DNA of 64,000 bases from an uncultured delta proteobacterium. GTDB lineage: Bacteria; Myxococcota_A; Polyangia; Polyangiales; Polyangiaceae. The notes beneath the pieces are model-generated. The model was not told the origin of the DNA, made no database searches, and saw only the letters and a list, made by a program, of their open reading frames with translations. The position numbers were made by a program, and so were the translations under genes. The stretch is taken from the NCBI GenBank assembly GCA_963716725.1, contig CAVQUB010000013.1, forward strand, positions 64,001 to 128,000, written 5' to 3'. Shown in pieces: positions 16,501-62,166 of this stretch. Position 1 is the stretch's first letter; each line of letters opens with the position of its first letter.

Positions 16501-17351
16501 AGATCGGGCACGTGCTGGGCATGGCGCAGTCCGAGGCCGTGCTGGGCGAGATCTACTACCTGCTCGGCACCTACGACCGCGCGCGGGTGGTGATCCAGGC
16601 CGGCGAGCAGCACTTCGCGGAGCTCGGCCAACCCCTCGGTCGCGGCCAGTGCCTGCTCTTGCTGTCGTGGATCGATCACTCCGAGGGCCTGACCGAGCGC
16701 GCCCGCCGCCTCACGCTCGGCGCGCGAACGGAGTTCGAGACGGCGGGCTACCGCCTGGGCATCGCCCAAGCCAACGCCTCACTCTCCCACGTCGAACACC
16801 GCCTGATGAACTTCTACAGCGCCGAGCTCGGCGCCCTCGAGGCCCTCGGATCCTTCGAGGCCCTCCGCACGCCGCGCGGCCACGCCGCCTGCGAGCGCCT
16901 GCTCGCGATGATCGGCATCGACACCGACGATCTCGACATGGCCGAGATCCACGCCGACCTGTCCTGGAACGTGTACTCACAGATGCGCGACCCCTGGGGT
17001 CTGATCGAAGCCAAGCTGCTCGGCTGCCAGATCGCCCTCGCCCGCCGCGACTTGCCGGGCGCCCACGAGAAGCTGATGGAGGCCGCGGGCATCAGCGTGC
17101 AAGAGGCCGAGCCCCGCCAGCACTACCTGCTGACGCAGGCCTGGTACTACATCGAGAGCGGCGACGCCGACAAAGCCTACGAGTCCCTCGAGGCCGCCGC
17201 CGAAGTCTTCGGCGAACGCAGCCGCGCCGGAGATCACACGCCTCACTTGCTCGGGAGGTTGAGTCGTAAGCAGTGGCCCGAGCACGCGAGGAACCGGATC
17301 GATGCTTGGAGAGCGTTGCTCAATGACCGATCGCGGCGCGTTCAGGAGTGA
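13599..17351 (+). CDS. Ser/Thr kinase fused to a P-loop ATPase and TPR-like repeats
   Basis: LGEGGMGIVY, HGDLKPSNV, DFGLA, GPAGVGKS Walker A, FLDDLH Walker B, GNPLF, helical repeats. Confidence 0.9.
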   Translation: MSNGGDPQGKPASAENGALPRVSTPADSAPSPSVEGVPHAASHLSGNPPPVEPEAEVEHDSAPPSIPSAASLKEGSILSVSMQEITPLGTPSPVLPGHILADRYEVISVLGEGGMGIVYRCKDIATGHEVALKRVIPPESKLAAEYIMWFYKEARALAALDHPCIVRAQDFGQLKDGTPFLTMDLVSGVSLHDLAQTANRFELIWHALDQILGALAHAHARGIIHGDLKPSNVLVEEVPGHPPKIHILDFGLAWLKQDPHDERLDGTKPMEFAPHAGAGTPGYMAPEQIQHEMHHVCGATDMYALGCILFKLLSGRSVFAGDPKELLRLHAFEKIPELRLAITAPEQVTAFVKRLLAKRPWDRWEFASEARAAWSAWRPESDVDPDAYTFPSLPHKTASPPAPTTRLSGPPRGRVEGLTPAAPQRAPGLLSIRPSPLVGRDDVRHVLREVCDEVIEGIGEPHRLVILVGPAGVGKSRIVEWLCEVVHEEGTMIPLRARYRRLRSPLDGMLGGVTHYFNFERADRNTIEKSLLLRWRVNSDDKNGRAWVAGAAEWVRPLSTDQPVGPSGIRFTLDSFETRRLVIRYTLRRIARGRPLLFFLDDLHNSGQTTFEGLLRVHQEEPDQRIVMVATVRSEDVQLGTPQAEQLRQLREAMNGIVIDVKPLEAEITAALIRASLPLDDSAVQEAARRSRGNPLFALQQLHAWALAGNMQIHDGVYRVPDEVLTVRPQTTAELWDSRVKVMPEAYRLAAYAVATLGADIRRNVLHSLLIRLGLAADDAIVSLQNAEVILPRGAGRYNWPHALLQEHLLAQLMERPDARDIFIAASEALGEHPLANQRRIIRQRAANMLYANEPELAAKLIFDWLTTAWNNAREPLSTLGDLELLKGHLEGRNLALKHRWSAEALRHLGKPEDATNHAEIARAGFEEIGDSENQANCLRLLGHLASEKGDSVEGAELATRAHEIFTEIGHVLGMAQSEAVLGEIYYLLGTYDRARVVIQAGEQHFAELGQPLGRGQCLLLLSWIDHSEGLTERARRLTLGARTEFETAGYRLGIAQANASLSHVEHRLMNFYSAELGALEALGSFEALRTPRGHAACERLLAMIGIDTDDLDMAEIHADLSWNVYSQMRDPWGLIEAKLLGCQIALARRDLPGAHEKLMEAAGISVQEAEPRQHYLLTQAWYYIESGDADKAYESLEAAAEVFGERSRAGDHTPHLLGRLSRKQWPEHARNRIDAWRALLNDRSRRVQE

Positions 17352-17450
17352 CCGAGAGACGCAGGGACGCGGAGAACGCGGAGCACGCAGGGGGAAATTT
17401 TGGGGTTCGGAGGTGAACTGCGGCGCAGACGCGAGACCGATGACGTGCCG

Positions 17451-17816
17451 TCAGCGAGGGAGCGCTTCTCGGATGAGAGCGACGGCGACCTGCGGCGCGC
17501 GCAGAACGAGCTCGGCATCCAGCCGGAGGACGCGATACCCGAGCCGCGCGAGTTTGCGGTCGCGCGAGGCATCCGCGGTGGCGCGGGCGCGATGGCAAGC
17601 ACCGTCGACCTCGATGGCCAGTCGAGCGGCAGGCACCAAGAAGTCGACGATCGCATCCCCGAGCACCACCTGCCGACGCACTTCGACCCCGAGCCGCCGC
17701 GCGCGCAGCGCTTCCCACAGCGCGGCCTCCGACCGGGTGGCCTGCTCGCGCATCTCCGCGGCGCGCTGGGCGAGGAGTTCCTGACGACGGAGCTGAGCGC
17801 GTTGACGAGCGAGCAT
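17451..17816 (-). CDS. DUF559 / Vsr-like endonuclease-domain protein
   Basis: RAAEMREQATRSEAALWEALR..LG..RRQ..IVDFLVPAARLAIEVDGACH..DASRDRKLARLGYRVLR. Confidence 0.85.
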   Translation of the reverse strand: MLARQRAQLRRQELLAQRAAEMREQATRSEAALWEALRARRLGVEVRRQVVLGDAIVDFLVPAARLAIEVDGACHRARATADASRDRKLARLGYRVLRLDAELVLRAPQVAVALIREALPR

Positions 17817-18063
17817 GGGCACCTCCGAAGACCCGGTGTGGTGGGCGGGCCTCGCGACCCAGGGCGCACGATCTGTGACGCGCCGCTTGCGAGTGCTTCC
17901 GGGCGCGCATGCGCGTTCACTCGAGACCTCGCGTCTCAACTCGCCACGCGGCGCGGCGCGGAGCGTGCGCCGACGAGCGGGGCCCGACCGCCACGACGGG
18001 CCGAGGCGTCATGCCTCCGCTCGTCACGACCTTCGACGACGGTCCGATTTCGCAAGCACGCCC

Positions 18064-18132
18064 GTCTTCCCCATTCGGGCAAAGCCCGAATTTGGGGAAG
18101 ACCGACGCCGCGCAGCGGCGGCGAGTTGGGGC
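18064..18132 (+). repeat. Double-hairpin REP-like element, copy 1
   Basis: GTCTTCCCCATTCGGGC-AAA-GCCCGAATTTGGGGAAGAC, then CGACGCCGC-GCA-GCGGCGGCG, then AGTTGGGGC. Confidence 0.9.
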
Positions 18133-18542
18133 AGCAACGCACACGCCTCACTTGCTCGGGAGATTGAGTCGTAAGCAGTGGCCCGCTCACGCGAAGAACC
18201 GGATCGATGCGTGGAGAGCGTTGCTCAACGATCGATCGCGGCGTGTGCAGGAGTGACCGAGAGACGCAGGGACGCGGGGAACGCGGAGAACGCAGGGGGA
18301 GAATTTTGGGGTTCGGAGGTGAACTGCGACGCACGCTCGAGACCGACAGCGCGGTGTCAGCGAAGGAGCGCCTCGCGGATGAGAGCGAGGGCGACCGGCA
18401 GCGCGCGCAGAACGAGCTCGGCATCCAGGCGGAGGACGCGATACCCGAGCCGCGCGAGTTTGCGGTCGCGCGAGGCATCCGCGCCTTCGCACCCGAGGCA
18501 AGGCCGTCATCTCCACGTTGTTTCCTGGTCGTGGCAGAACCA

Positions 18543-19327: not shown

Positions 19328-20055
19328 CGCGGCAGCCGAGTTGCTGACCACGGAGCTGAGCGCGTTGACGAGCGAGCATGGGTGCCTCCGAGGCACGACA
19401 CGCTCACTCGGTCGCGCCGAGCGAGCACAGCTGCATCAATCCCCCACGACGCCGCGTTCAAGAGTGGCGCGCGAGGGCTCGCCGACTGCGCGCCGGAGCG
19501 CTGATTGTGCGGGTCGTGCACAAGCGCCCACGAGCTGACTTCGCGTGATGCACGTACACGCCGTCGAGCACGAGAGCGTGGCCGTGGACGTTCAGTCTCA
19601 AAGCACCGTCCGTCCTCTGCACCGCGACCACGCCGCCGGTGTATGCTCTCGTGACGCTTGCGATTCCGAGCTCGCGCTTCGCGCGCCAGCGCAGCGAGCG
19701 GTCCACCTCCGCCATGAACGCGCTGACCACTTCTGCGCAGAGCTTCCGGTCGTCCCCCGTCGGGGACTTCGCAGCGTCGTAGCCGAGCAGCGCACGCAGC
19801 CCCCAGGGCAAGGAGCAAATCCAATGGCGGATCCGCACACGGGGCAGAACTCGCTCCTCCAAATGCACGGCCATGTCCGCCATGCGTCGCCCGACACAAG
19901 ATGGGCAAAAGCCGCGCTTTTTGCACGAAAACGCCACGAGGTCGGAGTAACCGCAGTCACGACACACGAGGTGCAGACAACCTCGCTCGAGCTGTCCACA
20001 CCCTAAATACTCCTCGAACTCCTTCACCACGACGCGCTGCGTGACACCCGACGGG

Positions 20056-21522
20056 CTCATGATTGATCGGATCCCATCTGGGACCGGGCAGCTCGGAAGC
20101 CGATCTCGTAGTCGAGGAGCTTCTGGTAGCCCCGTCCTAACGTTTGCCACCCGGGTGCGCCGTTGTTCTTCAGATGCCCGCCGAGTCGCGCGACAGCGAA
20201 TAGCGCTTGCTCAATGGTCTGCGGGACGGCCGGGAGGCGGAGCTTGAACTTTATGAGGAGCAACTGGGGCTCACTCAGGATCGTTGTTGCCGGTTGCTCG
20301 GGTGCGACGCGGGCTAACGAGCGCATGAGCAACAGGCGCCAGGCGATGGGCAGGAACACGGCGAGCGCGTTGCTCAGTGCCTGATACGACTCGAGCTGTC
20401 GTTTCTCGAGAGAACACCCTTGCTTGAGTGCCTTGAAGAACTCTTCGATCACCCACCGACTGCGGTAACAGTCCACGACGGTCGCGAGTTCGGCGACGGT
20501 GTCAATGGGTTCGGTAGTGAGCAGCACCCACTCGACCGACGGCTCGCCTTCTGGTGGTTGGAGTTCCCAGACTCGAACCACGTTGAGTTCGATGCTGCGC
20601 GTCTCATGTCGAGTGTTGCGGGGGCGCAGCACAGTCAAACGTTTGCCTGCCACGGCGACCTCCGCGCTCCGGGCGTTGCGAGACGGGTGCTCTTTTGCAG
20701 CATGCGCGCGACTGCTCGGTTTCCTCGATGACACCGAGATCGTGCGAAAAAACTGCGGTTCGAGCGTTGAGATTGCACTGCGCAAGCAGATGCCTATTTC
20801 CTCAGTTACTCGGTCGTGAGCCGAACGGATGACGTAGCGCGCACCGAGTTCCTGCGCCTTCGCCAGGACCTCGAAAATGTCCGCTTCGCGGTCCATCACG
20901 TGAATGAGCGCGCTGCCGGGGCAGCGTGCATGGACGGCCTCGAGCATGGCCGGCCAGCGCAGTGATTCGCGCTCGGGGTCTCTCCGACTGACAGACCGGC
21001 GGCGCCCGCGTCCACCCTTGTGTACGAGGCGGACGTGTCGCTGTAGACCCAGAACTCCGAGTGGCACTCGCTCCTCGCCGGGAAGCACGGCCAGCGCCAC
21101 GTGTGCGAGAAACCCCTGGCTGCCGCCGGACGTGACGCCCAACCCAGCTCGCCGACTGGCGCCGCCGAGCGATACTTCGGTCGTATCGTGCGCGACGATA
21201 CACAGGCCAGCGGAACTCACACGCTCCACCGTCGCCGACAGGTGCGGGTCAAGGATTTGCTCCGCGTCGAACTGCTCGTTGCGCAGGAATCGGTAGACTC
21301 CCTCAAGCTCGGACGGAGTGTCGACAGCCTGCGGAAACCCAACACCGGGCGCCGCCATCAGTTTCTCAGCGAGCCAACCGAGCCTGTCACTGCGCCGCTT
21401 ATCGCCGAGCTGAGAGCCCTCGAACTCGTCCGAAATCGACCGCCCTAACCATTCTGTTGCCGGCATTTCTCCCGTAGATCACACGCGCCGTCCGCTCGCA
21501 ATGAGATGTGTTTGATCATGAG
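20056..21522 (-). mobile_element. IS4-family insertion sequence with 8-bp target duplication CCGACGGG
   Basis: Ends CTCATGAT../..ATCATGAG; CCGACGGG at 20048-20055 and 21523-21530. Confidence 0.92.
20057..21466 (-). CDS. IS4-family (IS50-like) transposase
   Basis: LGDKRR..R, HDTT, VMDREAD, EWVLLT, YRSRWVIEEFFKALK, ARLGGH..PGWQTL. Confidence 0.93.
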   Translation of the reverse strand: MPATEWLGRSISDEFEGSQLGDKRRSDRLGWLAEKLMAAPGVGFPQAVDTPSELEGVYRFLRNEQFDAEQILDPHLSATVERVSSAGLCIVAHDTTEVSLGGASRRAGLGVTSGGSQGFLAHVALAVLPGEERVPLGVLGLQRHVRLVHKGGRGRRRSVSRRDPERESLRWPAMLEAVHARCPGSALIHVMDREADIFEVLAKAQELGARYVIRSAHDRVTEEIGICLRSAISTLEPQFFRTISVSSRKPSSRAHAAKEHPSRNARSAEVAVAGKRLTVLRPRNTRHETRSIELNVVRVWELQPPEGEPSVEWVLLTTEPIDTVAELATVVDCYRSRWVIEEFFKALKQGCSLEKRQLESYQALSNALAVFLPIAWRLLLMRSLARVAPEQPATTILSEPQLLLIKFKLRLPAVPQTIEQALFAVARLGGHLKNNGAPGWQTLGRGYQKLLDYEIGFRAARSQMGSDQS

Positions 21523-21819
21523 CCGACGGGGTGAAGCGCGGCAGGCCGCCGTGCTCTTCGGCCCTCTCCAAGAACGCCGGCCAGTGCTCCGCCACCGTCT
21601 GGTGGAGCACGGTGCTCTCCGGTCGATGGCGGGAACGCGATCGCTCGGACGGTGCAAGCGCGTGTGCGGGATGGCCCACGCCATGCGTGCATGAGCGAGT
21701 CCCGTGCCACGCGGCAGAGCCGCAAAGCCCCTGAGAATTCGTTCGCCCGCAGGCGGCGAAGTGGCGAAGTCAGGTGGCGATCGCCACCCAGGGGCGCGCG
21801 CTCTCTCCCGGCGCAGCCC

Positions 21820-22241
21820 GTCTTCCCCGCTCGGGCGAAGCCCGAGTTTGGGGAAGACCGACGCCGCGCAGCGGCGGCGAGTTGGGGCAGGAAGAGAGGC
21901 CCGGCGTGGTGGGCGGGCTTCGCGACCCAGGGCGCACGATCTGTGACGCGCCGCCCGCAGCGCTTCCTCGCGCGCAAGCGCCATCGTGATCGGCACCCTG
22001 CTTCCCGTCACCGCGCGGCGTGGCGCAGAGCGTGCGCCGGTTGAGCGCAGCCCGACCACTGCGCCGGGCCGAGGCACCACGAGCCGCGCGTGGCTCAGCG
22101 ACGACACACCAGGCTCGGAGCGACTCGTCTTCCCCGCTCGGGCAAAGCCCGAGCTTGGGGAAGACCGCAGGCGCGCACGAGCGCGAAGCGACGCGCTTCG
22201 CGATACTCGAAGGGGTGCGAGGAGCACCTGCGAGTTGGGGC
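21820..22241 (+). repeat. Double-hairpin REP-like elements, copies 2 (21820-21888) and 3 (22127-22241), separated by a copy of the DUF559 leader region
   Basis: GTCTTCCCCGCTCGGGC.AAGCCCGAG.TTGGGGAAGAC, second stem and AGTTGGGGC tail. Spacer is homologous to about 17830-18010 and 22555-22770. Confidence 0.9.
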
Positions 22242-22249
22242 AGGAAGAG

Positions 22250-22545
22250 AGCCGGAGCACCCGGTAGCCGAGCCGCCGGAGCGCGCGCTCGCGTCGGGCG
22301 TCCGCGACGCGGCGGTCGCGATGGTACCCGCCGTCAACTTCTATGACGAGCCGACAGGCGGGCACCAAGAAATCGACCACGTGCTGGCCGAGCACCACCT
22401 GACGCCGCACCGGAGCGCCGAGCTTTCCAGCGCGGAGCATTTCCCAGAGAGCTTGTTCGGAGCGGGTGGGCGTGGCGCGCATCTCGGCGGCGCGCTCGGC
22501 GAGGACTTGCTGGCGGCGAAGCTGTGCGTTGGGGCGAGCGGACAT
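22250..22545 (-). pseudogene. DUF559 endonuclease paralog, 3'-truncated at the REP-like element
   Basis: AERAAEMRATPTRSEQALWEMLR..VDFLVPACRLVIEVDGGYH..LGYRVLRL, then runs into the element. Confidence 0.8.
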
Positions 22546-22902
22546 GGTTCCTCCGAGGCCCGGCGTGGTCCCCCCCTGGGGACTTCCAAGGGTCGTGGGC
22601 GGGCTTCGCGACCCAGGGCGCAGGCTCTGTGACACGCCGCCCGCTGGCGCATCGTTCAAGAGTCAGCGTTCTTGCTCAGGACGTCGCATCAGGTCGGCAC
22701 GCGGCGTGGCACAGAGCGTGCGCCGGTTGAGCGGCGCCCGACCACTGCGCCGGGCCGAGGCACGACGAGCCGTTCGCAACGGCGCGCGACGACGCTGACT
22801 CTCACGCGCGAGCACCTTCTCGATCTCGAGCGCAAGCACCACGCTCGCGCCGTCGCCTCCGGCCTTGCAGCTGGATCGCTTCGAGCATAGACGGCACGCG
22901 CG

Positions 22903-24626
22903 CGGGAAGGAAGAATGAACTGCCAAAACCCACCGAAGCTCAGGGTACGCGCGGCGCGTTTCGAGGTCGAGGGGTGGTCGGGAGTGGTCGGAGTAGCTGG
23001 TACTGACGCTGCTCGCCGCTCCGACCCTTCAGGGCGAGGCTGAATGCGCCACCGCGGAGGGACCACCGCCTTGGCGGGGCGCTCGGCGAACCCTCACCCT
23101 CCCCCGAACCCCAGCTCCAACTGCTCGGGCACGCGCAGCTTCTCGCGCTCGAGCGGCGGCGCGCGCGGCCCGAGGCCATGCTCGGCGAGCAGCCGCGTGA
23201 TCGGAGCGCGCGTCGTGGCGACCTCGGCCCAGCGCATCGGACCCGAGCAGCGCGGGCAGGTCTCGACATCGGCCTGGAACACGACCCTGGGAAGTCCCCG
23301 ACGGGGGACATGGGCCAGCATCCATGCCCATCGTTTACGCTGCACCGGTGCGTCGTCCTTCTCGCCAAGTAGCTCGAGCTGGTCGCCGCGGGCGGGCGGC
23401 GGCTTGTTCGCGGTCGCGTCCGCTGGCGGTGTGGGCACGACGAGGCGCCGTCGAGAAGAGTGGCTCGACGACCCTTGGAAGTCCCTGAAGAGGGAGAGCA
23501 CGCCGAAGTACCGCAATAAGTGCCAGCGAGGCGGTGGCACCGCGGCCACCAGACGCGGGATGAGGTCAGCCGGCTCGAAGACCAGCGCGCGTGTGCCGCC
23601 CCCCGTCGGGGACTTCCAAGGGTCGTCGCGCCAGGGACGCTTGAAGCTCAGCTCGAGCTTGCCGTCGGCGCGGCGCGCGAGACGCTCCTGCGAGACGGAG
23701 GGCGCGTGATGTCCCCCGTCGGGGACTTCCAAGGGTCGTACTTGCAGATTCGCTCCACGCGACGGCGATCCCGTCCGTCGATGGCCTGAGCTGCGTGGAT
23801 GTTGATACCGCGCACCTCCGCGATGGGCTCGTCAATGGCGTCTGCGGCGCGCGGGCGCGCGGTCGGCTCTGGCGAGGTGAGCAGCCGCAGGGGCGGCTTT
23901 CCGGCGCGCTCGCCGCTCACGGAGACGACCCCTGGAAGTCCCCGACGGGGGATGCCCTGCGCTGCGGCGGCGTAGCAGGCGGCGAGCCCGGGCTCGTCCA
24001 GGGCGAGCTCGGGCGGGGTGTCGTCGTCGCACTCGGGGTCCAGGCTTCGGCCATGCGCACGCAGGATCTTCTCGATGCGAGCCGCGGTGCGCGAGGCGAC
24101 CTCGGCGATGTCCGCGTGAGAAGGCGCGTCGAGCTCCAGGAACTCGAGCGGAGCGCGCGGGTCGTCGTCCTGGTGCACGTACACGCCGTCGAGCACGAGC
24201 GCGTGGCAGTGAACGTTGAGTCGGAGGGCACTGTCTGTTCTCTGCACCGCAACCACGGCGCCGGTGTGACAGCTGGCGACGCTCGCGACGCCGAGCTCGC
24301 GCTTTGCGCGCCAGCGCAGTGAGCGGTCCACCTCCGCCATGAACGCGCTCACCACCTCGGCGCAGAGCTTCCGGTCGTCCCCCGCCGGGGACTTCGCAGC
24401 GTCGTAACCCAGGAGCGCGCGCAGACCCCAAGGCAAGGAGCAGATCCAATGGCGAATGCGTACGCGCGGCAGCACTCGCTCCTCCAAGTGCACGGCGATA
24501 TCCGCCATTCGGCGCCCGACACAGGAGGGGCAAAAGCCGCGCTTTTTGCAGGAAAAAGCCACCAGCTCGGAGTGCCCGCAGTCACGACACACGAGGTGTA
24601 GACAGCCGCGCTCGAGCTGCCCGCAG
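22903..24626 (-). mobile_element. IS91-like element copy B: 5'-truncated, frameshifted near 23697, carrying six 27-nt insertions
   Basis: Colinear with the intact transposase at 48652-50223; end motif GAACTGCCAAAACCCACCGA..AGGGTACGCG. Confidence 0.9.
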
Positions 24627-24677
24627 GTCAGAGGTGACGCCACCTGTGTCATCGGCGCGCGCTGTCCGTAACCTGGC

Positions 24678-28337: not shown

Positions 28338-29120
28338 CGTAGGAGGAACGAACTGCCAAAACCCACCGATGCTCAGGGTACGCGCGTGGCGGTCGGAGGT
28401 CGAGAGGCAGGTCGGGGTGGCTGGCTGAACAGTTGGTTGCCGCTGCTGAGCGTCACAGCGAGGCAGAACGCGCCACCGCGCACGGAGCACCGCCTTGGCG
28501 AGTCCCGCGACGAAGCCTCACCCTTCCCCGAACCCCAACACGAGCTGCTCGGGCACCCGAAGGTTCACGTGTTGACGCGGCGGCGCTCTCGCCCCGAGAC
28601 CGTGCTCGGCGAGCAGGCGGGTGATGGCAGCACGCGTCGTGGCGACCTCGGCCCAGCGCATCGGACCGGAGCAGCGGGGACAATGGTCCATGTCAGCTTG
28701 GAACACGTGGGCCAGCATCCATGCCCATCGTTTGCGCGGCACCGGCGCGTCGTCCTTCTCGCCAAGTAGCTCGAGCTGATCGCCGCGGGCTGGCGGCGGC
28801 TTGTTCGCGGTCGCGTCCGCCGGCGGTGTGGGCACGACGAGACGCCGGCGCGAGGAGTGGCTCGACGACCCTTGGAAGTCCCTGAAGAGGGAGAGCACGC
28901 CGAAGTACCTGAGGAGATGCCAGCGAGGCGGCGGCACCGCGGCGACGAGGCGCGGGATGAGGTCGGCGGGCTCGAAGACCAGCGCGCGTGTGCCGCCCCC
29001 CGTCGGGGACTTCCAAGGGTCGTCACGCCAAGCACGCTTGAAGCTGAGCTCGAGTTTGCCATCCGCGCGGCGCTCGAGGCGGTCCTGCGCGACAGGTGGG
29101 CGCGTGATGTCCCCCGTCGG
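28338..29120 (-). mobile_element. IS91-like element copy C (3' part), cut by IS4
   Basis: ITRPPVAQDRLERRADGKLELSFKRAW..; end CGTAGGAGGAACGAACTGCCAAAACCCACCGA. Confidence 0.9.
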
Positions 29121-45536: not shown

Positions 45537-46111
45537 ACTCGCCGCTCCCTGCGAGGCAACCCGACGCCCCGCTCATGGACGAGTACCACCGCGCGGTTCG
45601 AGTCGGGGACGAAGAGATCTGGTACGCCGCTGAAAGGTACTACCCGCGCACACAGCGCGCGACGCTTGCCTCAGCGCGCGCCACGAGGGCGTCGTCGCAT
45701 TGACACTCATTTGCACAACCTGACCGAGCTGACGGTTGCGTGACGACGCGAAGCGTGCGCCAGCTCGAATTCTCGCGCGCGCGATCGAGCAAAGCTTACG
45801 TCGCGTCACACTTGCCGAAGGCGAGCACGTGGAATGCTGGGACTCTCGCTGGCGGCCGTCTCGCCGTGGGACAGATACGACAACGAAACACCCGCGGTCC
45901 CCGCCTTCGGCGCGAACGCGCGGGTCAAGCGGCGCGCCGCCCGCTGTAGCGACAAGAGCGGTCGCAGGCCGGAGCGATTTCCTCGTGGTGTCACGTGTCA
46001 CGCGACCGCGCCGCGCCAGAGCGCGCCCACGAGCTGCGACAGTCCGCGTCGGACCTTCACGCGCGTCGGGAGCGCCTGCCGGCCCGTGGTTCGCATTTGC
46101 CAGCTCGAGCG

Positions 46112-50330: not shown

Positions 50331-50480
50331 CCATGGGCGCGGGGGCGCTCCTTGGAGTCGAGGTCGGCGGCTCGCCCGCCCCGACCGACCCGGTCAGTCG
50401 AGAGGCAGCCCGAAGGCACCACCATCCAGGTCGGCCTCGACGGCGAGACGTTCACGTTCACGGCGTGAGGGTGGGCGGGC

Positions 50481-53324: not shown

Positions 53325-55343
53325 ATGGAGACGAACCTTGCACGGAAGAAAATCGAACGCCGCCGCCGCGGACGAATCGCGGTGTGGCTCTGCTCGCTGG
53401 CGGCGCTGGGTGCCCTGGAAGGCTGTGGCCGTCACGAAGAGGCACCCGTCTCGACCAACAGCCAGCGAGTCAACGGCGTGTACATCCCCGAGGGCGGCGC
53501 CAGCGCGCCGTGGGTCTCGGCGGACTGGGTGGACCTCGACGTCCACTCACGCCTGGCACTGCCGGCGAGCTTCGGTCTGGTGATGAGCAACAACGCTGGC
53601 GAAGACGTCACGGTCGGGGTCACCCTCGAGAGCTTCGGCCTCGAAACCCGAAAGGCGTCCATCTTCCTGGGCAGCCTGGTGGTCCCCGCGCGCGCGTCGT
53701 TCACGGTGCCCATCGACCTGTCGTGGCTCCCGATCCGCTCCGTGGGCTCGGTGAGCAGCGTCCACGCCAGCCTGCAGCTCTACAAGGGGCGCGCTCAGCG
53801 CCAGCTCACCACGTCGCGCCTGGCGTACGAGTTCGAGCCGGGGCTCTCGACGATCACGCTCTGGGGCTCCACCGCCCGGCGCTTCGCTCTGTCGAACCCG
53901 CGGGACCCGCGCCAGGAGCGGATGCAGCTCGCGGCGCTGGACGCGACGCTGCTCACGCCACAAGGTGACGTCTGGAACGGCAGCAGCTTCGTGCCCGTCG
54001 CCTCGCTTCCGCCGGTGGGCGGCGCGGGCTACCAGATCCGGGGCTCTGTCGACTTCTGGGAGGCGTGGCCCGCCAGTGTGCCGGCGCCCGGCACCCCCCT
54101 CGACGGCCCACCGGGCCCAACGAAGGTGTGCGCGTCCCACACGTGGAAGTTCTACGACGCCAGCGTGGGCGAGGACTACTTCTGGATGAACGGCTTCAAC
54201 GCGGAGCCGGCGCGGTACACCGCAGCGCTGCTCGAGAACTACGACACCGGTCAAGCGGTGTGGGCAGGCTGGCTTGGGTCGTCGGGCTGCACGCCCACCA
54301 TGGATCTGCCGGCGGGCACCTACGGGTTGACTCTTGCGTCCAAGCTGCGCACTCAGACCAACAGCGGGGCGGTGACCATGGATGTCGAGACGGAGCAGAG
54401 CTTCGACTATGGCGGCGCTCCGCCCAACACGCCGGTGGTGGGCTACGCCCGCACGCTCTTCGACGTCCACCCGGGCCCGGCGCCCAGCACGGTGCAGGTC
54501 GGCGTCTACTTGACCACGGTGGCCTCGAACATCCTGGTGGTCGGGGGTAGAATGTTCGACATGCCCGATCACGGGCTGAGCCAGGGGCACATCCGAGTGA
54601 CGACGCGCGATCCGAGCTCGAACAACATCGATTGCTCGTCGGGCGGCGGCGAGCCGCCCATCTCGTGGGCGTCGACCAGTCATGCGCTGAAGGAGAGCAC
54701 GATCTGCATCGGGCGAAAGAACACCTTGGACCCCTCGGACGCGTGGAGCAAGTTCGTGGTGGGCCACGAATTCGGGCATACGGTGCAGGGCTTCGGCATG
54801 GGCAACCTGACGACCGACTACGACAACCCGACCTCGCAGCCGCTCTGCCGCTGCGATCACGTGGCTTCTTCCAACCAGTACCATTGCTTGCAGTCGCAAG
54901 AGGTCATCGGCGCGGGCGCGTCCGAGGGCTTCGCGCACCTGTACGCGAGCCGGATCTTCAATCTCCAAGAGCAGTCCGATTGCGCCTTCGGGTACTACAA
55001 GGAGTTCATGGACAGCTCGTACGCGGTGCAGCAACCCCCGGTCGCCGTGAACTGCAAGACCCCAGTGAAGTGGCTAGAAAACCAGTGCCTCACGGCGAAC
55101 CGCGGCGTGGAGTACGACTGGATGAACTTCCTGTACGACATCAACAGCGCACCGTCGTCCCAACGCACCACGCTGGCCAACCTGTGGCAGGTGTACTTGA
55201 CCGCGTGCTCGCCACCCGAGTGCGAAAGCGAGAACCTCTCGTGGTCGGCGCTCGATAACGGAGCGAAGGCGTACTACGGGGTCAGCGATCCCAAGTACGT
55301 CTGGTTGCATCAGTCCGGCAACAACTTCGGCGTCAACCACTGA
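53325..55343 (+). CDS. Secreted lipoprotein with a zincin-like HExxH motif (putative metallopeptidase)
   Basis: LEGC lipobox; VVGHEFGH and downstream SEGFAH. Confidence 0.7.
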   Translation: METNLARKKIERRRRGRIAVWLCSLAALGALEGCGRHEEAPVSTNSQRVNGVYIPEGGASAPWVSADWVDLDVHSRLALPASFGLVMSNNAGEDVTVGVTLESFGLETRKASIFLGSLVVPARASFTVPIDLSWLPIRSVGSVSSVHASLQLYKGRAQRQLTTSRLAYEFEPGLSTITLWGSTARRFALSNPRDPRQERMQLAALDATLLTPQGDVWNGSSFVPVASLPPVGGAGYQIRGSVDFWEAWPASVPAPGTPLDGPPGPTKVCASHTWKFYDASVGEDYFWMNGFNAEPARYTAALLENYDTGQAVWAGWLGSSGCTPTMDLPAGTYGLTLASKLRTQTNSGAVTMDVETEQSFDYGGAPPNTPVVGYARTLFDVHPGPAPSTVQVGVYLTTVASNILVVGGRMFDMPDHGLSQGHIRVTTRDPSSNNIDCSSGGGEPPISWASTSHALKESTICIGRKNTLDPSDAWSKFVVGHEFGHTVQGFGMGNLTTDYDNPTSQPLCRCDHVASSNQYHCLQSQEVIGAGASEGFAHLYASRIFNLQEQSDCAFGYYKEFMDSSYAVQQPPVAVNCKTPVKWLENQCLTANRGVEYDWMNFLYDINSAPSSQRTTLANLWQVYLTACSPPECESENLSWSALDNGAKAYYGVSDPKYVWLHQSGNNFGVNH

Positions 55344-55349
55344 GTCCCC

Positions 55350-56495
55350 ATGCGCAGCACCCTCGCCTGGTTGATCGCGTCGTGCCTCGCCGGCTGCTCG
55401 TGCAGCGACGGCGGCGGCAGCTCTGCAGGCGGTCAACCAGGCACCGGCGCCACCTCGAGCTCGGGCGGAAGCTCGGGCTCGGGGGGCACTGGGGGCGCGA
55501 TCACAGAGGGCGGCACCGATGCCACCACGGACGCCGACTCCGGCCCGAGCTTCGACTGCGAGCACGCGCCGGTCACCGAGGACTGCAAGTCCGGCTGGTG
55601 CCGCATCCCGGCCGGCTGCTTCGTGCTGGGCTCGCCGAAGGACGAGTGGGGCCGCGGCGCCAACACCGAGAACCAGGTGAAGGTCACGCTCACCCACCCG
55701 TTCCTGATCCAGCAGAAGGAGACCTCTCAGGCCGACTGGGTCGCCCTCGGTCTGAAGAATCCCAGCACCGCCCCGATCAAGCCCGGCAACTCGGGCGACT
55801 GCCTCGAGCCCGCTTGCCCCGTGGGCAACGTGACGTGGTTCGAGGCGGCGGGGTTTGCCAACCTGCTCTCGCAGAAGGAGGGCCTGAAGCCCTGCTACGT
55901 GCTCGAGGGTTGCACCGGACAGCTCGGCGAGGGCATGGCCTGCACCAAGATCGGCACCACAGCGCCCAGCTATTACGAGTGCGAGGGGTACCGCCTGCCC
56001 GGCGAGGCCGAGTGGGAATACGCCGCGCGGGCAGGGACCACGACGGCGTTCTACACGGGGCCGATAACGGCATTTCCGACCAACGCCCTCGCGTGCAACT
56101 CAGACCCCGCGCTCATCGCCGCTGCCTGGTATTGCGCCAACTCCGGCACCGTCACGCACCCCGGCGGACTGAGGCAGAAGAACCAGTGGGGATTGTACGA
56201 CATGCTCGGAAACTGTGTGGAGTGGACCAACGACGTCATGAAGGGTCTGGGCTACGGGACGACCCCGCTGTCTGATCCTTGGGGTCAGGTCAAGATCTCA
56301 AACGTGATCGAGGCCGTGGTTATCCGCGGAGGCGGACCCATCTTCTCCGCGTCGAGCTGTCGAGCCGCGGCGCACTTCAGCGGTGGCCGCTCCGATCGCG
56401 GCGGCGGCATCGGCTTCCGCCTCGTCCGCAGCCTGCTCACCACCCCCGACGCGTCCACCCCCGACGCCTCCCCACCCGACGCGTCCACCGACTGA
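55350..56495 (+). CDS. FGE-sulfatase (SUMF1/C-type-lectin fold) lipoprotein, copy 1
   Basis: LAGC lipobox, PVGNVTWFEA, YRLPGEAEWEYAARAG, NQWGLYDMLGNCVEW, RGG, GFRLVR. Confidence 0.9.
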   Translation: MRSTLAWLIASCLAGCSCSDGGGSSAGGQPGTGATSSSGGSSGSGGTGGAITEGGTDATTDADSGPSFDCEHAPVTEDCKSGWCRIPAGCFVLGSPKDEWGRGANTENQVKVTLTHPFLIQQKETSQADWVALGLKNPSTAPIKPGNSGDCLEPACPVGNVTWFEAAGFANLLSQKEGLKPCYVLEGCTGQLGEGMACTKIGTTAPSYYECEGYRLPGEAEWEYAARAGTTTAFYTGPITAFPTNALACNSDPALIAAAWYCANSGTVTHPGGLRQKNQWGLYDMLGNCVEWTNDVMKGLGYGTTPLSDPWGQVKISNVIEAVVIRGGGPIFSASSCRAAAHFSGGRSDRGGGIGFRLVRSLLTTPDASTPDASPPDASTD

Positions 56496-57021
56496 CCGAT
56501 GCTCATTGCATCAGCGCACGCCCCCGCCGCCGCCAAGGTCTCGCGCCACCAACGCCAGAGTCCCCCCCGGCCGCGCGCAGGGCGCGCGAGCCGCTCATCG
56601 GGCCCATCGACGGCGCGCCCGAGCACGGCCTTGGCGGGGGACCGCAGGCGCGCAGGCGCCAGCGCGCACACCGAGCCCTTCCGCACGCCCCGCGACGCGC
56701 CGAGCACCTGCGAGGCGGGGGCAACCAAAGACCCCAGTGAAGTGGCTCGAAAACCAGTGCCTCACCGCGAACCGCGGCGTGGAGTACGACTGGATGAACT
56801 TCCTCTATGACATCAACAGCGCGCCAACTGCGCAGCGCACCACGCTTGCCAACCTGTGGCAGGTGTATCTCACGGCCTGCTCCCCACCCGAGTGCGAGAG
56901 CGAGAACCTCTCGTGGCCGGCGCTCGATAATGGAGCGAAGGCGTACTACGGGCTGAGCGACGCGAGGTACACCCGGATCGTCTCGTCCGGCAGCAACTTC
57001 GGCGTCAACCACTGAGCTCCC

Positions 57022-58176
57022 ATGCGCAGCACCCTCGCCTGGTTGGTCGCCTCGTGCCTCGCCGGTTGCTCTTGCAGCGACGGCGGCGGCGGCAGCTCTG
57101 CAGCACCCGCAGGCGGCCAACCAGGCACCGGCGCCACCTCGAGCTCGGGCGGAAGCTCGGGCTCGGGGGGCACCGGGGGCGCAGCCACCGAGGCTGGCAC
57201 AGACGCCGCGGCCGACGCCGATTCCGGCCCGAGCTTCGACTGCCAGCACGTGCCAGTCACCGAGGACTGCAAGGCCGGCTGGTGCCGCATCCCAGCCGGC
57301 TGCTTCGTGATGGGCTCGCCGAAGGACGAGTGGGGCCGAGGCGCCAACGACGAGAACCAGGTGAAGGTCACGCTCACCCACCCGTTCCTGATCCAGCAGA
57401 AGGAGACCTCTCAGGCCGACTGGGTCGCCCTCGGTCTGAAGAATCCCAGCACCGCTCCGATCAAACCCGGCAACTCCGGCGACTGCCTCGAGCCCGCTTG
57501 CCCCGTCGGCAACGTGACGTGGTTCGAGGCGGCGGGGTTTGCCAACTTGCTCTCGCAGAAGGAAGGGCTGAAGCCCTGCTACGTGCTCGAGGGCTGCACC
57601 GGACAGCTCGGCGAGGGCATGGCCTGCACCCAGATCGGCACCACAGCGCCCACCTACTATGAGTGCGAGGGGTACCGCCTCCCCGGCGAGGCCGAGTGGG
57701 AATACGCCGCGCGGGCAGGGACCACGACGGCTTTCTACACGGGACCGATCACGGTTTTCCCCGGAGACATGCTCGCGTGCAACAGCGACCCGGTCCTTCT
57801 GGGAGCGGCCTGGCACTGTGCTAACTCCGGCACCGTCACGCACCCTGGAGGGCTGAAGGCGAGGAGTGCCTGGGGACTCTACGACTCGCTCGGGAACGCA
57901 CACGAGTGGACAAACGACCTCATGAAAGGGTTGGGCTACGGCTCGGGGCCGCTGGTCGACCCCTGGGGCGAACTCAAGATCCTGGCAGCCATTGAAGCAG
58001 TCGTCATCCGGGGCGGAGGGCCGATCACTCCGCCGTCGAGGTGCAGGGCCGCGGCGCACTTCAGCGGTGGCCGCTCCGATCGCGGCGGCGGCATCGGTTT
58101 CCGACTCGTCCGCAGCCTGCTCACCACCCCCGACGCGTCCACCGACGCCGCGCCACCCGACGCGTCCACCAACTGA
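57022..58176 (+). CDS. FGE-sulfatase-fold lipoprotein, copy 2
   Basis: Paralog of copy 1 with the same motifs. Confidence 0.9.
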   Translation: MRSTLAWLVASCLAGCSCSDGGGGSSAAPAGGQPGTGATSSSGGSSGSGGTGGAATEAGTDAAADADSGPSFDCQHVPVTEDCKAGWCRIPAGCFVMGSPKDEWGRGANDENQVKVTLTHPFLIQQKETSQADWVALGLKNPSTAPIKPGNSGDCLEPACPVGNVTWFEAAGFANLLSQKEGLKPCYVLEGCTGQLGEGMACTQIGTTAPTYYECEGYRLPGEAEWEYAARAGTTTAFYTGPITVFPGDMLACNSDPVLLGAAWHCANSGTVTHPGGLKARSAWGLYDSLGNAHEWTNDLMKGLGYGSGPLVDPWGELKILAAIEAVVIRGGGPITPPSRCRAAAHFSGGRSDRGGGIGFRLVRSLLTTPDASTDAAPPDASTN

Positions 58177-58795
58177 CCGATGCTCATTGCATCAGCGCAC
58201 GCCCCCGCCGCCGCCAAGCTCTCGCGCCGCCAACGCAAGAGTCCCCCCGGCCGCGCGCAGGGCGCGCCAGCCGCTCATCGCGCCCTTCGACGGCGCGCCC
58301 GAGCACGGCCTTGGCGGGGGACCGCAGGCGCGCAGGCGCCAGCGCGCGCACCGAGCCCCTCCGCGCGCACCGCGAAGCGCCGAGCACCTGCGAGGCGGGG
58401 GCAACCAAGCATCAAGAGCAGTCCGACTGCGCCTTCGGATACTACAAGGAGTTCATGGACAGCTCGTATACGGTGCAGCAACCCCCGGTCGCCGTGAACT
58501 GCAAGACCCCGGTGAAGTGGCTCGAGAACCAGTGCCTCACGGCGAACCGCGGCGTGGAGTACGACTGGATGAACTTCCTGTATGACATCAACTCGGCGCC
58601 GTCGTCCCAACGCACCACGCTGGCCAACCTGTGGCAGGTCTATCTCACGGCCTGCTCGCCACCCGAGTGCGAAAGCGAGAACCTCTCGTGGTCGGCACTG
58701 AAGGATGGCGCGAAGGCGTACTACGGGGAGTTCAACGCCCGCTATGTGAAGCTCGCCCAATCCGGCGACGACTTCGGCGTCAACCACTGAGCCCC

Positions 58796-59941
58796 ATGCG
58801 CAGCACCCTCGCCTGGTTGATCGCCTCGTGCCTCGCCGGCTGCTCGTGCAGCGACGGCGGCGGCAGCTCCGCAGCACCCGCAGGCGGTCAATCAGGCACC
58901 GGCGCCACCTCGAGCTCGGGCGGAAGCTCGGGCTCGGGGGGCACCGGGGGCGCAGCCACCGAGGCTGGCACCGACGCCACCACGGACGCCGACTCGGGCC
59001 CGACCTTCGACTGTCAGCACGCGCCGGTGGTCGAAGACTGCAAGGCCGGCTGGTGCCGCATCCCAGCCGGCTGCTTCGTGATGGGCTCGCCGAAGGACGA
59101 GTGGGGCCGCGGCGCCAACACCGAGAACCAGGTGAAGGTCACGCTCACCCACCCGTTCCTGATCCAGCAGAAGGAGACCTCTCAGGCCGACTGGGGCGCC
59201 CTCGGCCTGAAGAATCCGAGCGGTCCTCCACCAAAGCCCGACAGCATGGGCGACTGCCTCGAGCCCGCCTGCCCCGTCGGCAACGTGACGTGGTTCGAGG
59301 CGGCGGGGTTTGCCAACCTGCTCTCGCAAAAGGAGGGCTTGAAGCCCTGCTACGTGCTCGAGGGCTGCACCGGACAGCTCGGCGAGGGCATGAACTGCAC
59401 CAGCATCGGCACCTCGGCGCCCAGCTACTACGAGTGCGAGGGCTACCGCCTGCCCGGCGAGGCCGAGTGGGAGTACGCGGCCCGGGCCGGGACCACGACG
59501 GCCTTCTACACGGGTCCGATCACCAAGCTGGCGCAGACGTCTGACTGCGAGAGCGATCCCAACCTCGTGAAGGCCGCTTGGTACTGCGCCAACTCCGGGA
59601 CGCTCACGCATCCCGGTGGACAGAAGACGAAGAACGCGTGGGGCCTTCACGACGTGCTGGGGAACGCTTACGAGTGGACGAATGACGTGATGAAGGGGTT
59701 GGGCTATGGGATAGGGCCGCTCGAGGACCCGTGGGGCAAAGTCGAAATCAAGGACTCCATCGAGGGCATCGTGCTGCGCGGGGGCGGCACGATTACGCCG
59801 GCGGCCCGCTGCCGTGTCGCTGCTCACTTCGAGCTCTCCCGACCGTCGCGAGGCCCCGGCGGCGGCTTCCGCCTCGTCCGCAGCCTGCTCGCCACCCCCG
59901 ACGCTCTCCCGACGCTCCCCACCGACGCGTCCACCGACTGA
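58796..59941 (+). CDS. FGE-sulfatase-fold lipoprotein, copy 3
   Basis: Paralog of copy 1; ATG at 58796 (MRSTLAW). Confidence 0.9.
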   Translation: MRSTLAWLIASCLAGCSCSDGGGSSAAPAGGQSGTGATSSSGGSSGSGGTGGAATEAGTDATTDADSGPTFDCQHAPVVEDCKAGWCRIPAGCFVMGSPKDEWGRGANTENQVKVTLTHPFLIQQKETSQADWGALGLKNPSGPPPKPDSMGDCLEPACPVGNVTWFEAAGFANLLSQKEGLKPCYVLEGCTGQLGEGMNCTSIGTSAPSYYECEGYRLPGEAEWEYAARAGTTTAFYTGPITKLAQTSDCESDPNLVKAAWYCANSGTLTHPGGQKTKNAWGLHDVLGNAYEWTNDVMKGLGYGIGPLEDPWGKVEIKDSIEGIVLRGGGTITPAARCRVAAHFELSRPSRGPGGGFRLVRSLLATPDALPTLPTDASTD

Positions 59942-60472
59942 CCGATGCCCATCGCCTCAGCGCACGCCCCCGCCGCCGCCAGGCTTCCGCGCCGCCAACG
60001 CAAGAGTCCCCCCCGGCCGCGCGCAGGGCGCGCGAGCCGCTCATTGCGCCCATCGACGGCGCGCCCGAGCACGGCCTTGGCGGGGGACCGCAGGCGCGCA
60101 GGCGCCAGCGCGCGCACCGAGCCCTTCCGCACGCCCCGCGACGCGCCGAGCACCTGCGAGGCGGGGGCAACCAAAGACCCCAGTGAAGTGGCTACGAAAA
60201 CCAGTGCCTCACGGCAAACCGCGGCGTGGAGTACGACTGGATGAACTTCCTCTATGACATCAACAGCGCGCCAACTGCGCAGCGCACCACGCTGGCCAAC
60301 CTGTGGCAGGTGTACTTGACGGCCTGCTCGCCACCCGAGTGCGAAAGCGAGAACCTCTCGTGGTCAGCGCTCGATGACGGAGCGAACGCGTACTACGGGG
60401 GCTTTAGCGACGCCACGGTACGCTCGGCTCGTCTCGTCCGGCGACGACTTCGGCGTCAACCACTGAGCTCCC

Positions 60473-61636
60473 ATGCGCATCCCCCTCGCCTGGTTGATCG
60501 CCTCGTGCCTCGCCGGCTGCTCGTGCAGCGACGGCGGCGGCAGCTCCGCAGCACCCGCAGGCGGCCAACCAGGCACCGGCGCCACCTCGAGCTCGGGCGG
60601 AAGCTCGGGCTCGGGGGGCACCGGGGGCGCAGCCACCGAGGCTGGCACCGACGCCGCAACAGACGCGGACGCCGGCCCGAGCTTCGACTGCCAGCACGCG
60701 CCGGTCACCGAGGACTGCAAGGCCGGCTGGTGCCGCATCCCAGCCGGCTGCTTCGTGATGGGCTCGCCGAAAGACGAGTGGGGCCGCGGCGCCAACACCG
60801 AGAATCAGGTGAAGGTCACGCTCACCCACCCGTTCCTGATCCAGCAGAAGGAGACCTCTCAGGCCGACTGGGTCGCCCTGGGCCTGAAGAATCCCAGCAC
60901 CGCTCCGATCAAACCCGGCAACTCCGGCGACTGCCTCGAGCCCGCCTGCCCAGTCGGCAACGTGACGTGGTTCGAGGCGGCGGGCTTTGCCAACCTGCTC
61001 TCGCAGAAGGAGGGCCTGAAGCCCTGCTACGTGCTCGAGGGTTGCACCGGACAGCTCGGCGAGGGCATGGCCTGCACCAGCATCGGCACCACCGCGCCCA
61101 GCTACTACGAGTGCGAGGGCTACCGCCTCCCCGGCGAGGCCGAGTGGGAGTACGCCGCGCGGGCAGGGACCACGACGGCCTTCTACACCGGACCGATCAC
61201 GAAGCTCGCGCAAACCTCGGACTGCGAGCTCGACCCCAGCCTCGTGAAGGCCGCTTGGTACTGCGCCAACTCCGGCACGCTCACGCATCCCGGTGGACAG
61301 AAAACGAAAAACGCTTGGGGTCTTCACGACGTGCTCGGGAACGCGCACGAGTGGACTAATGATGTTGAGAAGGGTCTCGGGTATGGCACCGGCGCCCTTG
61401 TAGATCCTTGGGGGGAGCTGAAGCTGGCGACGCCGGAAATCGTCGTGCTGCGCGGGGGCGGCCCCATCTCACCGGGCGCTCGTTGCCGCGCTGCAGCCCA
61501 TTTCGGCGGACCGAGGCACGGCAAGGGCAGTGGGGCGGGCTTCCGCCTCGTCCGCAGCCTGCTCGCCACCCCCGACGCCTCCACCTTCGACGCCTCGCCA
61601 CCCGACGCGTCCCCACCCGACGCGTCCACCGACTGA
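60473..61636 (+). CDS. FGE-sulfatase-fold lipoprotein, copy 4
   Basis: Paralog of copy 1 with the same motifs. Confidence 0.9.
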   Translation: MRIPLAWLIASCLAGCSCSDGGGSSAAPAGGQPGTGATSSSGGSSGSGGTGGAATEAGTDAATDADAGPSFDCQHAPVTEDCKAGWCRIPAGCFVMGSPKDEWGRGANTENQVKVTLTHPFLIQQKETSQADWVALGLKNPSTAPIKPGNSGDCLEPACPVGNVTWFEAAGFANLLSQKEGLKPCYVLEGCTGQLGEGMACTSIGTTAPSYYECEGYRLPGEAEWEYAARAGTTTAFYTGPITKLAQTSDCELDPSLVKAAWYCANSGTLTHPGGQKTKNAWGLHDVLGNAHEWTNDVEKGLGYGTGALVDPWGELKLATPEIVVLRGGGPISPGARCRAAAHFGGPRHGKGSGAGFRLVRSLLATPDASTFDASPPDASPPDASTD

Positions 61637-62166
61637 CCGATGCCCATCGCCCCAGCGCACGCTCCCGCCACCGGCAAGCTGTCGCGCCACCAGCGACAGA
61701 GTCCCCCCGGCCGCGCGCAGAGCGCGCCAGCCGCTCATCGCGCCCTTCGACGGCGCGCCCGAGCACGGCCTTGGCGGGGGACCGCAGGCGCGCAGGCGCC
61801 AGCGCGCGCACCGAGCCCCTCCGCGCGCCCCGCGACGCGCCGAGCACCTGCGAGGCGGGGGCAACCAAAGACCCCAGTGAAGTGGCTCGAAAACCAGTGC
61901 CTCACCGCGAACCGCGGCGTGGAGTACGACTGGATGAACTTCCTCTACGACATCAACAGCGCACCAACCGCGCAGCGCACCACGCTGGCCAACCTGTGGC
62001 AGGTGTACTTGACGGCCTGCTCGCCACCCGAGTGCGAAAGCGAGAACCTCTCGTGGTCAGCGCTCGATGGCGCGGCGATACGCGTACTACGGGGGCTTTG
62101 GAGACCCGACGGTACGCACGGCTGCACCAATCCGGCGACGACTTCGGCGTCAACCACTGAGCTCCC

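Follow-up and report, generated by a model that had tools for sequence, protein, structure and literature searches.

Element E is a two-hairpin repeat found in nine copies in a 64,000-nucleotide (nt) stretch of contig CAVQUB010000013.1, from an uncultured member of the Polyangiaceae; the whole stretch is referred to as the window. The copies lie in three loci, with a kinase and a DUF559 nuclease-like gene (locus 1), an Rhs array (locus 2) and an array of HExxH and FGE genes (locus 3). Behind the tail of every intact copy the sequence restarts at a point further upstream in the same locus, and taken together our findings suggest that arrays of alternative gene ends are built by one-sided copying at E. 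The origin of orphan arrays of alternative toxin and partner modules is still unsettled, and a single structured element at the right-hand end of the units, in three loci and in other genomes, offers a concrete and testable site for the event. The family of E copies, its structure and polarity, the positions of the junctions and their recurrence in other genomes were all observed directly.

The initial annotation of the window had named nine elements, eight intact and one (E5) split by insertions, and inspection of the sequence confirmed them all (Table 1). From 5' to 3', E consists of a first stem that opens with GTCYYCCCC and closes with GGGGRRGAC, the bases CG, a second stem, CGAG, one or two further bases, a run of G and a final CA. 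The bases GTC...GAC-CG...CGAG and a following G run that ends in CA are invariant. Across the family E is 70–170 nt long and forms two covarying imperfect hairpins. It exists in a short form with simple hairpins (E1, E2 and E4) and a long form in which both stems carry the module GCGCGCAG-hairpin-CGAGCAC. This module is present in stem 2 of E3 and in both stems of E6–E9, there with enlarged loops, and is the string already recognized by the initial annotation as common to E3 and the copies of the FGE array. In long copies (E6, or positions 1993–2104 of locus L040; loci found in other genomes carry L numbers) the module has fixed mismatches and a bulged A and is repeated in both stems; judged from the sequence it looks like a putative duplicated binding site for some factor. 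A reading of the GCGCAG/GAGCAC module as a kink-turn was weighed by eye and dropped.

A loose regular expression for the architecture matched the eight intact copies only over the 64 kb. In comparison with shuffled sequence, E1–E4 folded with z-scores of −5.3 to −7.1, and E6 alone folded no better than shuffled sequence (z = 0.08). At the gathering score no Rfam 15 family matched any copy of E, the sole match in the window being the group II intron RF02001, and no match to E was found among the PLSDB plasmids. The motif GACCGNNNGNGCG was barely enriched (10 matches, 6.6 expected).

Self-BLAST and inspection of the junctions showed that, in all eight intact copies, the sequence abruptly becomes homologous to a point further upstream in its own locus 4–9 nt past GGGGCA, in agreement with the restarts first annotated from the sequence. 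At locus 1, the sequence after E1 (18140–18483) repeats 17235–17577 with 91.6% identity, the sequence after E2 (21897–22177) repeats 17829–18114 in the DUF559 start and leader, and that after E3 (22250–22761) repeats 17521–18007 inside the DUF559 gene. After E4 the restart is at 35709, equal to 38865 in the Rhs core, and 34173–35709 corresponds to 37329–38865 with 87.9% identity. At locus 3 the restarts after E6, E8 and E9 (56728, 60174 and 61868) all equal 55056, and the restart after E7 (58413) equals 54966 and forms the junction of a duplicated two-unit block, each with 86–90% identity. Between tail and junction the window copies have GCAACG, GCAAGA, ACCA, ACCAAGCAT or GGAAGAG. The end on the side of the element is thus fixed and the restart point varies, as had been proposed; the junctions lie at the tail and only there, and breakpoints were never found on the 5' side of an intact window copy. 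Because E6, E8 and E9 have one common junction that was copied along with the units, and the E2 junction occurs also in L039/L060 and L054, we count about six distinct junction types in the window. By eye, no obvious similarity was seen ahead of the restart points in the source copies of the window junctions. About 12 restart points, from the window and elsewhere, share no common motif and at most 2–3 nt of possible microhomology (GAG at E2, E3 and L009).

In the HExxH/FGE array the tandem duplications are nested and of unequal length: the unit 55056–56727 is repeated, and the two-unit block 54966–58408 is repeated at 58413–61868. Every duplicated copy terminates at a tail. The units are 90–98% identical outside two variable regions, the final ~20 codons of the HExxH fragment and 340 nt within the FGE gene; HExxH fragments 4 and 5 are frameshifted, and the fifth FGE gene is interrupted at 62926 by an ISCR-like element. 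In the Rhs array the main gene and the orphan fragment have cores that are 88% identical and tips that are unrelated. At locus 1 the second copy (18140–18483) ends abruptly at an ISCR-like remnant, and the locus is a DUF559-E module duplicated within a stretch rich in insertion sequence (IS) remnants, not an array of alternative 3' ends. The initial proposal of arrays of alternative 3' ends with partner genes therefore holds for the Rhs and HExxH/FGE loci and fails for locus 1.

The same element is widespread among other genomes of the Polyangiaceae. A scan of genome contigs with a degenerate pattern for the short architecture gave at least 122 loci (L001–L122; L081–L122 with 300-nt flanks). 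Nearly all of the listed loci are in assemblies titled Polyangiaceae, Polyangia, Myxococcales or unclassified proteobacterial metagenome-assembled genomes (MAGs), and the first 80 come from 34 assemblies. Two covariance models were used, R1 for the short type and R2 for the long type, the latter trained on other genomes only. R2 matched 75 of the first 80 listed loci at an E-value of at most 0.001, missing L002, L017, L022, L052 and L057. Five loci were set aside as chance matches, namely L017 (Planomonospora), L022 (Streptomyces) and L052 (Chthoniobacter), which R2 missed, and L115 and L118, judged by eye. In the window R2 recovered all eight intact copies (in rank order E3, E1, E2, E4, E8, E6, E7 and E9, with E-values from 1e-10 to 0.04), and its sole additional match over the 64 kb was the reverse strand of E2 (E-value 0.056). 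R1 alone did not reach E6–E9. Since a model derived from other genomes recovers all eight copies, the three window loci fit one structural model, which together with covariation supports the initial view of a single family. Compensatory changes were seen in 12 of 27 pairs in a hand-checked alignment of 16 short copies, in 14 of 35 pairs in a hand-checked alignment of 22 long copies, and in 29 of 35 pairs in a model-fitted alignment of 76 distinct sequences, which leans towards the model. Paired cells amounted to 91–93% in each alignment versus 35–52% with slid partners, and none of 500 shuffles attained the observed score. RNAalifold on a plain MAFFT alignment recovered the outer stem only.

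Outside the window E is mainly a general intergenic repeat, since its neighbours are ordinary genes: Pfam assignments for 89 of 189 selected flank open reading frames (ORFs) of L001–L042 include GAPDH, PNPase, leucyl-tRNA synthetase, Der, UvrC, AdoHcy hydrolase, kinases and others. Inverted pairs of E lie close together in L029 (1886–1977 on the plus and 1993–2101 on the minus strand, tail to tail) and also in L025 and L049, and recall REPIN doublets. In L045 (1865–2190) two tRNA-Ser genes, with the anticodons GGA and CGA, flank E, and the tail of E is separated by 6 nt from the 3' end of one of these genes. L039 and L060, one on a contig binned as Phycisphaerales and the other in a Polyangiaceae MAG, contain the same region of ISCR-like transposase and E with identical tblastn coordinates and identity, which probably reflects misbinning or a recent transfer.

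E is a discrete, sharply bounded unit: in 319 pairs of copies from different assemblies, homology extended no more than 10 nt beyond E at its 3' side in 297 pairs and at its 5' side in 310. E is also polar. Nothing is conserved upstream of GTC, whereas the flank downstream of GGGGCA follows the consensus NCCC, and 73 of 86 non-redundant flanks have C at +2; NCCC is absent at the window junctions and may be target or part of E. No target duplication was detected in 119 copies, the longest word common to the 50 nt on each side being no longer than in shuffled pairings. A complement of a stop codon was found within 18 nt after the tail in 38 of 86 flanks versus 15 of 86 in the mirror control, and the nearest ORF past the tail is on the opposite strand at 43 of the 59 loci having a called ORF (70 loci examined, 17 of them one near-identical family and 2 chance loci). 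Many copies elsewhere continue as GGGGGCA-NCCC(C) and a T-rich stretch, which from its sequence looks like a small terminator; the window copies have no such T run. In assembly JBGAID01, copies on different contigs share 0 to ~280 nt upstream, and the shared sequence ends 0–9 nt past GGGGCA in 28 of 40 pairs. When JBGAID01 and JAKLKA01 are combined, homology extends only upstream in 18 pairs and only downstream in one.

Restarts were also found in other genomes when the 400 nt after the tail were compared with the upstream 2 kb for 52 copies with enough flank, from 27 assemblies. A match was present for 14 copies, four of which were set aside: the L045 match was rejected as reflecting two tRNA-Ser paralogues and not a duplication, L028 was left out for its 23-nt match, and L029 and L072 because the match begins far from the tail. 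The other 10 restarts begin at most 7 nt from the tail (seven in JBGAID01, two in JAKLKA01 and one in JBFXBK01), two of them, L021 and L066, being array-internal. In a matched 1-kb range, restarts were seen at 11 of 47 tails and at 1 of 47 and 3 of 47 control points 1 kb off (4 of 94 together), so that the back-jump frequency exceeds that at control points; two of the three matches in the second control set fall inside E arrays. Some array units in JBGAID01 have stem 2 and the tail only, and the restart is still present. L009 parallels locus 1 of the window with another host gene, the order being a MoxR 3' end, DUF559 on the opposite strand, E, and the MoxR 3' end again. The behaviour originally described for the window, with a fixed end at the element and a varying restart point, is found in other genomes as well.

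An explanation has to account for a precise 3' terminus common to solitary copies and array junctions, one-sided breakpoints, variable left ends free of any motif, the lack of target duplication, and the concentration in few genomes. We favour, tentatively, an enzyme-directed one-ended event at the tail. Here a strand-specific cut or strand transfer would take place at the 3' terminus of E, a few nt past GGGGCA. Each copy would have its right end at the tail and its left end either at the foot of stem 1, giving a solitary E, or, by read-through, at a variable point further upstream; the 5' side of E would stay attached to any sequence upstream of it. With such copies repeatedly placed directly behind a tail, head-to-tail arrays of a gene 3' end, a partner gene and E would form. 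The chemistry may be akin to the one-ended rolling-circle transposition of IS91/ISCR elements or to break-copying from a site-specific nick, and the latter fits the motif-free left ends equally well; the cut, the copying chemistry and the enzyme are inferred. Should an enzyme act at the tail, large myxobacterial genomes would have a new means of duplicating the ends of genes and making them diverse.

Several observations weigh against this reading. Most copies elsewhere are solitary, and 38 of the 52 show no restart within 2 kb, an outcome that the initial annotation had itself named as speaking against its proposal. Restarts occurred in only 3 of the 27 assemblies and 7 of the 10 in one of them, JBGAID01, where the upstream unit plus E may be a single composite repeat. 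Elsewhere the tail mostly faces the stop of a gene on the opposite strand, whereas E in the window arrays follows genes on the same strand. In assembly SXNL01, E is not the terminus, because the repeated unit extends 55–80 nt beyond the tail. One Rhs core-end fragment (33288–33208, minus strand) restarts without any E, the only such case in the window. The unrelated Rhs tips behind a similar core cannot arise by local duplication alone, which therefore cannot explain the Rhs locus by itself. One-ended events of IS91 end at a specific tetranucleotide, and a strict IS91-type reaction is disfavoured since the restart points have no common motif. No cognate enzyme was identified, and the ends of the ISCR-like element of the window are unlike E.

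The larger repeat in SXNL01 (e.g. L003, L010–L012, L032 and L036) consists of tandem 62-nt units, E and ~58 nt more. The end of this repeat lies 3–5 nt from the stop codon of the adjacent gene, in most cases TAG, and contigs break off immediately upstream of the repeat. The Rhs fragment at 33208–33288 (minus strand) is a third, short core-end fragment, directly followed by a copy of 35938–36246.

A passive origin, with no dedicated enzyme, seems unlikely to us; here replication would stall at a stable REP-like hairpin, and the nascent strand would switch to a template further upstream. The stability of the stems and the motif-free restart points with minimal microhomology would agree with it, and REP sequences at duplication join points in Salmonella provide a precedent, although our literature searches did not retrieve it. 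However, the breakpoints are not at the foot of a hairpin and fall 12–20 nt beyond stem 2, at the same terminus as in solitary copies, and they are one-sided; JBGAID01 units reduced to stem 2 and the tail still restart, and the effect is confined mostly to 3 of 27 assemblies though the hairpins are alike everywhere.

Somewhat less probable again is that E is a terminator or 3' cassette boundary and that the arrays arose through homologous recombination and imported polymorphic-toxin cassettes with C-terminal displacement, the tail junction being one old accident copied repeatedly. The Rhs tips fit such an import, as do the last ~20 codons and the 340-nt FGE stretch, which vary like polymorphic pairs, and the junction shared by E6, E8 and E9; orphan Rhs and contact-dependent inhibition (CDI) arrays are also well known. 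A single accident is difficult to reconcile with about six junction types over three window loci and others in other genomes, all of them at the tail. Moreover, the post-tail sequence has no homology to the sequence ahead of the restart points, and by an estimate from the layout, not a computation, random breakpoints after the partner gene would mostly land in or before E.

An RNA-mediated route appears improbable. Transcripts ending at the tail would be reverse-transcribed with variable 5' truncation and the cDNA laid behind a tail, in a manner resembling long and short interspersed elements. This would explain why, in arrays as well as at unlinked loci, the 3' end is fixed and the 5' ends vary; the terminator-like GGGGGCA-NCCC(C) and T-rich stretch exist in many genomes, and the window contains a group II intron reverse transcriptase. 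Yet the window copies lack NCCC and the T run past the tail, the kinase unit holds a gene on the other strand, and the sole reverse transcriptase seen is of the intron maturase type and inserted into an E. It is more improbable still that E is an attC-like site at which a site-specific recombinase, like that of integrons, would excise and insert circular cassettes bounded by tails: structure is conserved while sequence varies, one element follows each cassette, and E5 holds a group II intron, as attC sites may, since group II introns insert into them, but there is no integrase in the 64 kb, there are two hairpins in E and R''/R' core sites are lacking, tail and junction are a variable 4–13 nt apart, the first units begin inside genes with no E ahead, and most copies are solitary and beside ordinary genes.

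For an enzyme-directed event, candidate enzymes are the product of the DUF559 nuclease gene linked to E and the ISCR-like Y2 HUH transposases, of which the window has four. A DUF559 gene adjoins E in about 14 listed loci from at least seven assemblies, as a raw count. It is usually divergent, with ~120–160 nt from its start to the GTC end, and the same holds at E1. A DUF559 start or leader with E directly behind a tail is found at E2, L039/L060 and L054. The DUF559 assignment of the window gene is from Pfam (E-value 4e-25), and its nearest solved relative, 3HRL, is named 'endonuclease-like protein'. At E2 and in L039/L060, the opposite strand carries an ISCR-like transposase whose start is 152 nt from E. 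That E might be the terIS of this element was rejected: the ISCR-like element has its own terminal palindrome (GGTGGCGATCGCCACC), beyond which E lies, and the flank beyond E is common with L060. For these reasons ISCR beside E is one inherited arrangement with no sign that E is an ISCR end. No integron integrase was found within the 64-kb window, and no Y1 transposase or RAYT gene among the ORFs of the window and the flanks that were scanned, a set smaller than whole genomes. A fuller proposal is possible but doubtful: Polyangiaceae would have an undescribed system of one-ended, single-strand copying and joining, with E as its cis-acting terminus. A DUF559 or Y2 HUH nuclease would cut at the tail, copies beginning at any upstream position would be attached behind a tail, and the system would act as a cassette-array generator that differs from integrons and assembles orphan arrays of Rhs and other polymorphic gene pairs.

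The window has a G+C content of ~68%. Its first 17 kb contain ordinary genes and no copy of E by the regular expression and the R1/R2 scans, and the three E-bearing loci follow from 17 kb on.

Table 1. Copies of element E and associated genes and elements, with positions in the 64-kb window
Feature	Position	Strand	Remarks
Ser/Thr kinase gene	13599-17351		locus 1
DUF559 nuclease-like gene	17451-17939	-	locus 1, opposite strand to kinase
Locus 1 unit 1	17235-18139	+	kinase last 116 nt, DUF559 gene (-), DUF559 leader and E1
E1, short	18064-18139	+	stem 1 GTCTTCCCC..GGGGAAGAC, stem 2, tail GGGGCA plus GCAACG; z = -7.1; E-value R1 5e-21, R2 1e-8
ISCR-like Y2 transposase fragments	19545-20048, 21530-21679, 23112-24682, 28521-29108		locus 1, IS-remnant-rich stretch
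IS4-like elements	20057-21466, 29122-30201		locus 1 stretch; DDE_Tnp_1 ORF at 29122-30201
E2, short	21820-21896	+	~22 nt past upstream (terIS-side) end of ISCR-like fragment 21533-21798
E3, short stem 1 and long-type stem 2	22127-22249	+	stem 2 CGCAGGCGCGCA..GAGCACCTGCGAG; E-value R2 1e-10
E5, remainder	30668-30621	-	long-type stem 2 up to GAGCACCTG; IS4-like element cuts before tail
E5, 5' part (stem 1)	32852-32801	-	91% identical to E4; group II intron interrupts after 32801
Rhs array	33851-41338	-	order: main Rhs gene, E4, orphan fragment
Orphan Rhs fragment	33851-35830	-	core 35709-34173, different C-terminal tip down to 33851
E4, short	35804-35710	-	between main Rhs unit and orphan Rhs fragment
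Main Rhs gene	36977-41338	-	locus 2
HExxH/FGE array	53325-62925	+	HEFGH gene, then five units of its last 96-126 codons, FGE-sulfatase lipoprotein gene and E
HEFGH lipoprotein gene (HExxH)	53325-55343	+	locus 3
E6, long, enlarged loops	56560-56727	+	after FGE gene 1; E-value R2 9e-4
E7	58241-58412	+	after FGE gene 2; E-value R2 7e-3
E8	60006-60173	+	after FGE gene 3; E-value R2 6e-4
E9	61701-61867	+	after FGE gene 4; E-value R2 0.04

The split copy E5 received its group II intron (Rfam RF02001, 30669–32800, minus strand, with a reverse transcriptase/maturase ORF at 30836–32560) in the 3' arm of stem 1. Insertions seem to be drawn to E, the intron and then the IS4-like element both lying in E5. 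The ISCR-like element of the IS91 family at 46108–50341 (minus strand) has the 1180 bp nearest its end downstream of the transposase gene in three exact tandem units (46109–47288, 47289–48468 and 48469 onwards), which reflect either a recent rolling-circle-type re-initiation or an assembly artefact. A 100% identical copy of this element sits in the fifth FGE gene from 62926 (62926–64000).

At locus 3 the HEFGH protein and the FGE-like proteins (the first encoded at 55350–56495) have lipoprotein-type signal starts with a Cys after LEG or LAG, and from their sequences they may be a polymorphic lipoprotein pair. The HEFGH protein matched no Pfam or NCBIfam family and had only three relatives in a search of 5.8 billion proteins. 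The variable FGE stretch (56058–56400 and its equivalents in the other FGE genes) is 57–78% identical between flanks of 90–98%. Mutagenesis like that of diversity-generating retroelements was ruled out for it, as the differences are without adenine bias.

Among known systems, orphan arrays of Rhs and CDI genes are similar in that 3' fragments with partner genes and differing tips come after a full-length gene, and homology upstream permits swapping. They differ in that the same E also ends duplications of non-toxin genes, as in the kinase/DUF559 locus and in L009 with MoxR. Literature searches returned no description of a shared structured element at an orphan-cassette boundary. Searches on myxobacterial repeats, DUF559, hairpins at Rhs orphan junctions and REP join points returned nothing relevant to E, subscription-only literature being outside their scope.

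The attC sites of integrons have R''/R' core sites (RYYYAAC...GTTRRRY) and a single hairpin with extrahelical bases. Like attC, E is defined by structure and stands at the 3' end of each array cassette; unlike attC, it has no integrase nearby, no core sites on reading and two hairpins, its cassettes begin inside genes, and it is mostly solitary. Repetitive extragenic palindromic (REP) sequences are short single palindromes with a conserved GTAG head, with a RAYT gene flanked by copies. E resembles REP/BIME and REPIN-RAYT systems in being short, structured, covarying, intergenic and multicopy, near gene ends and sometimes in inverted doublets (L029). It differs in starting with GTCYYCCCC, in having two different hairpins and a G-run tail and no GTAG head, in a polar end with variable 5' extensions, and in that no RAYT gene was seen among the scanned ORFs.

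The IS91 family, in the sections of PMC13181058 drawn on here, has two functionally distinct ends, no terminal inverted repeats, subterminal imperfect palindromes and no target duplication, a conserved flank or target next to the oriIS end only, frequent one-ended events, and a failure of termination that mobilises adjacent DNA. Compared with this partial account, E likewise has imperfect palindromes, two unlike ends, no terminal inverted repeats, no target duplication, and one fixed and one variable end, and ISCR-like transposases occur in the window and beside E in L039/L060; the NCCC past the tail may correspond to the conserved flank. In contrast, E is only 70–170 nt long and carries no transposase, the ends of the ISCR-like element of the window are of another kind, and new copies of E are in tandem behind the donor; membership of E in the IS91 family is not established. 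We file E as a structured repeat resembling REP sequences and miniature inverted-repeat transposable elements, of a family absent from Rfam 15 and with a polar, one-ended duplication behaviour.

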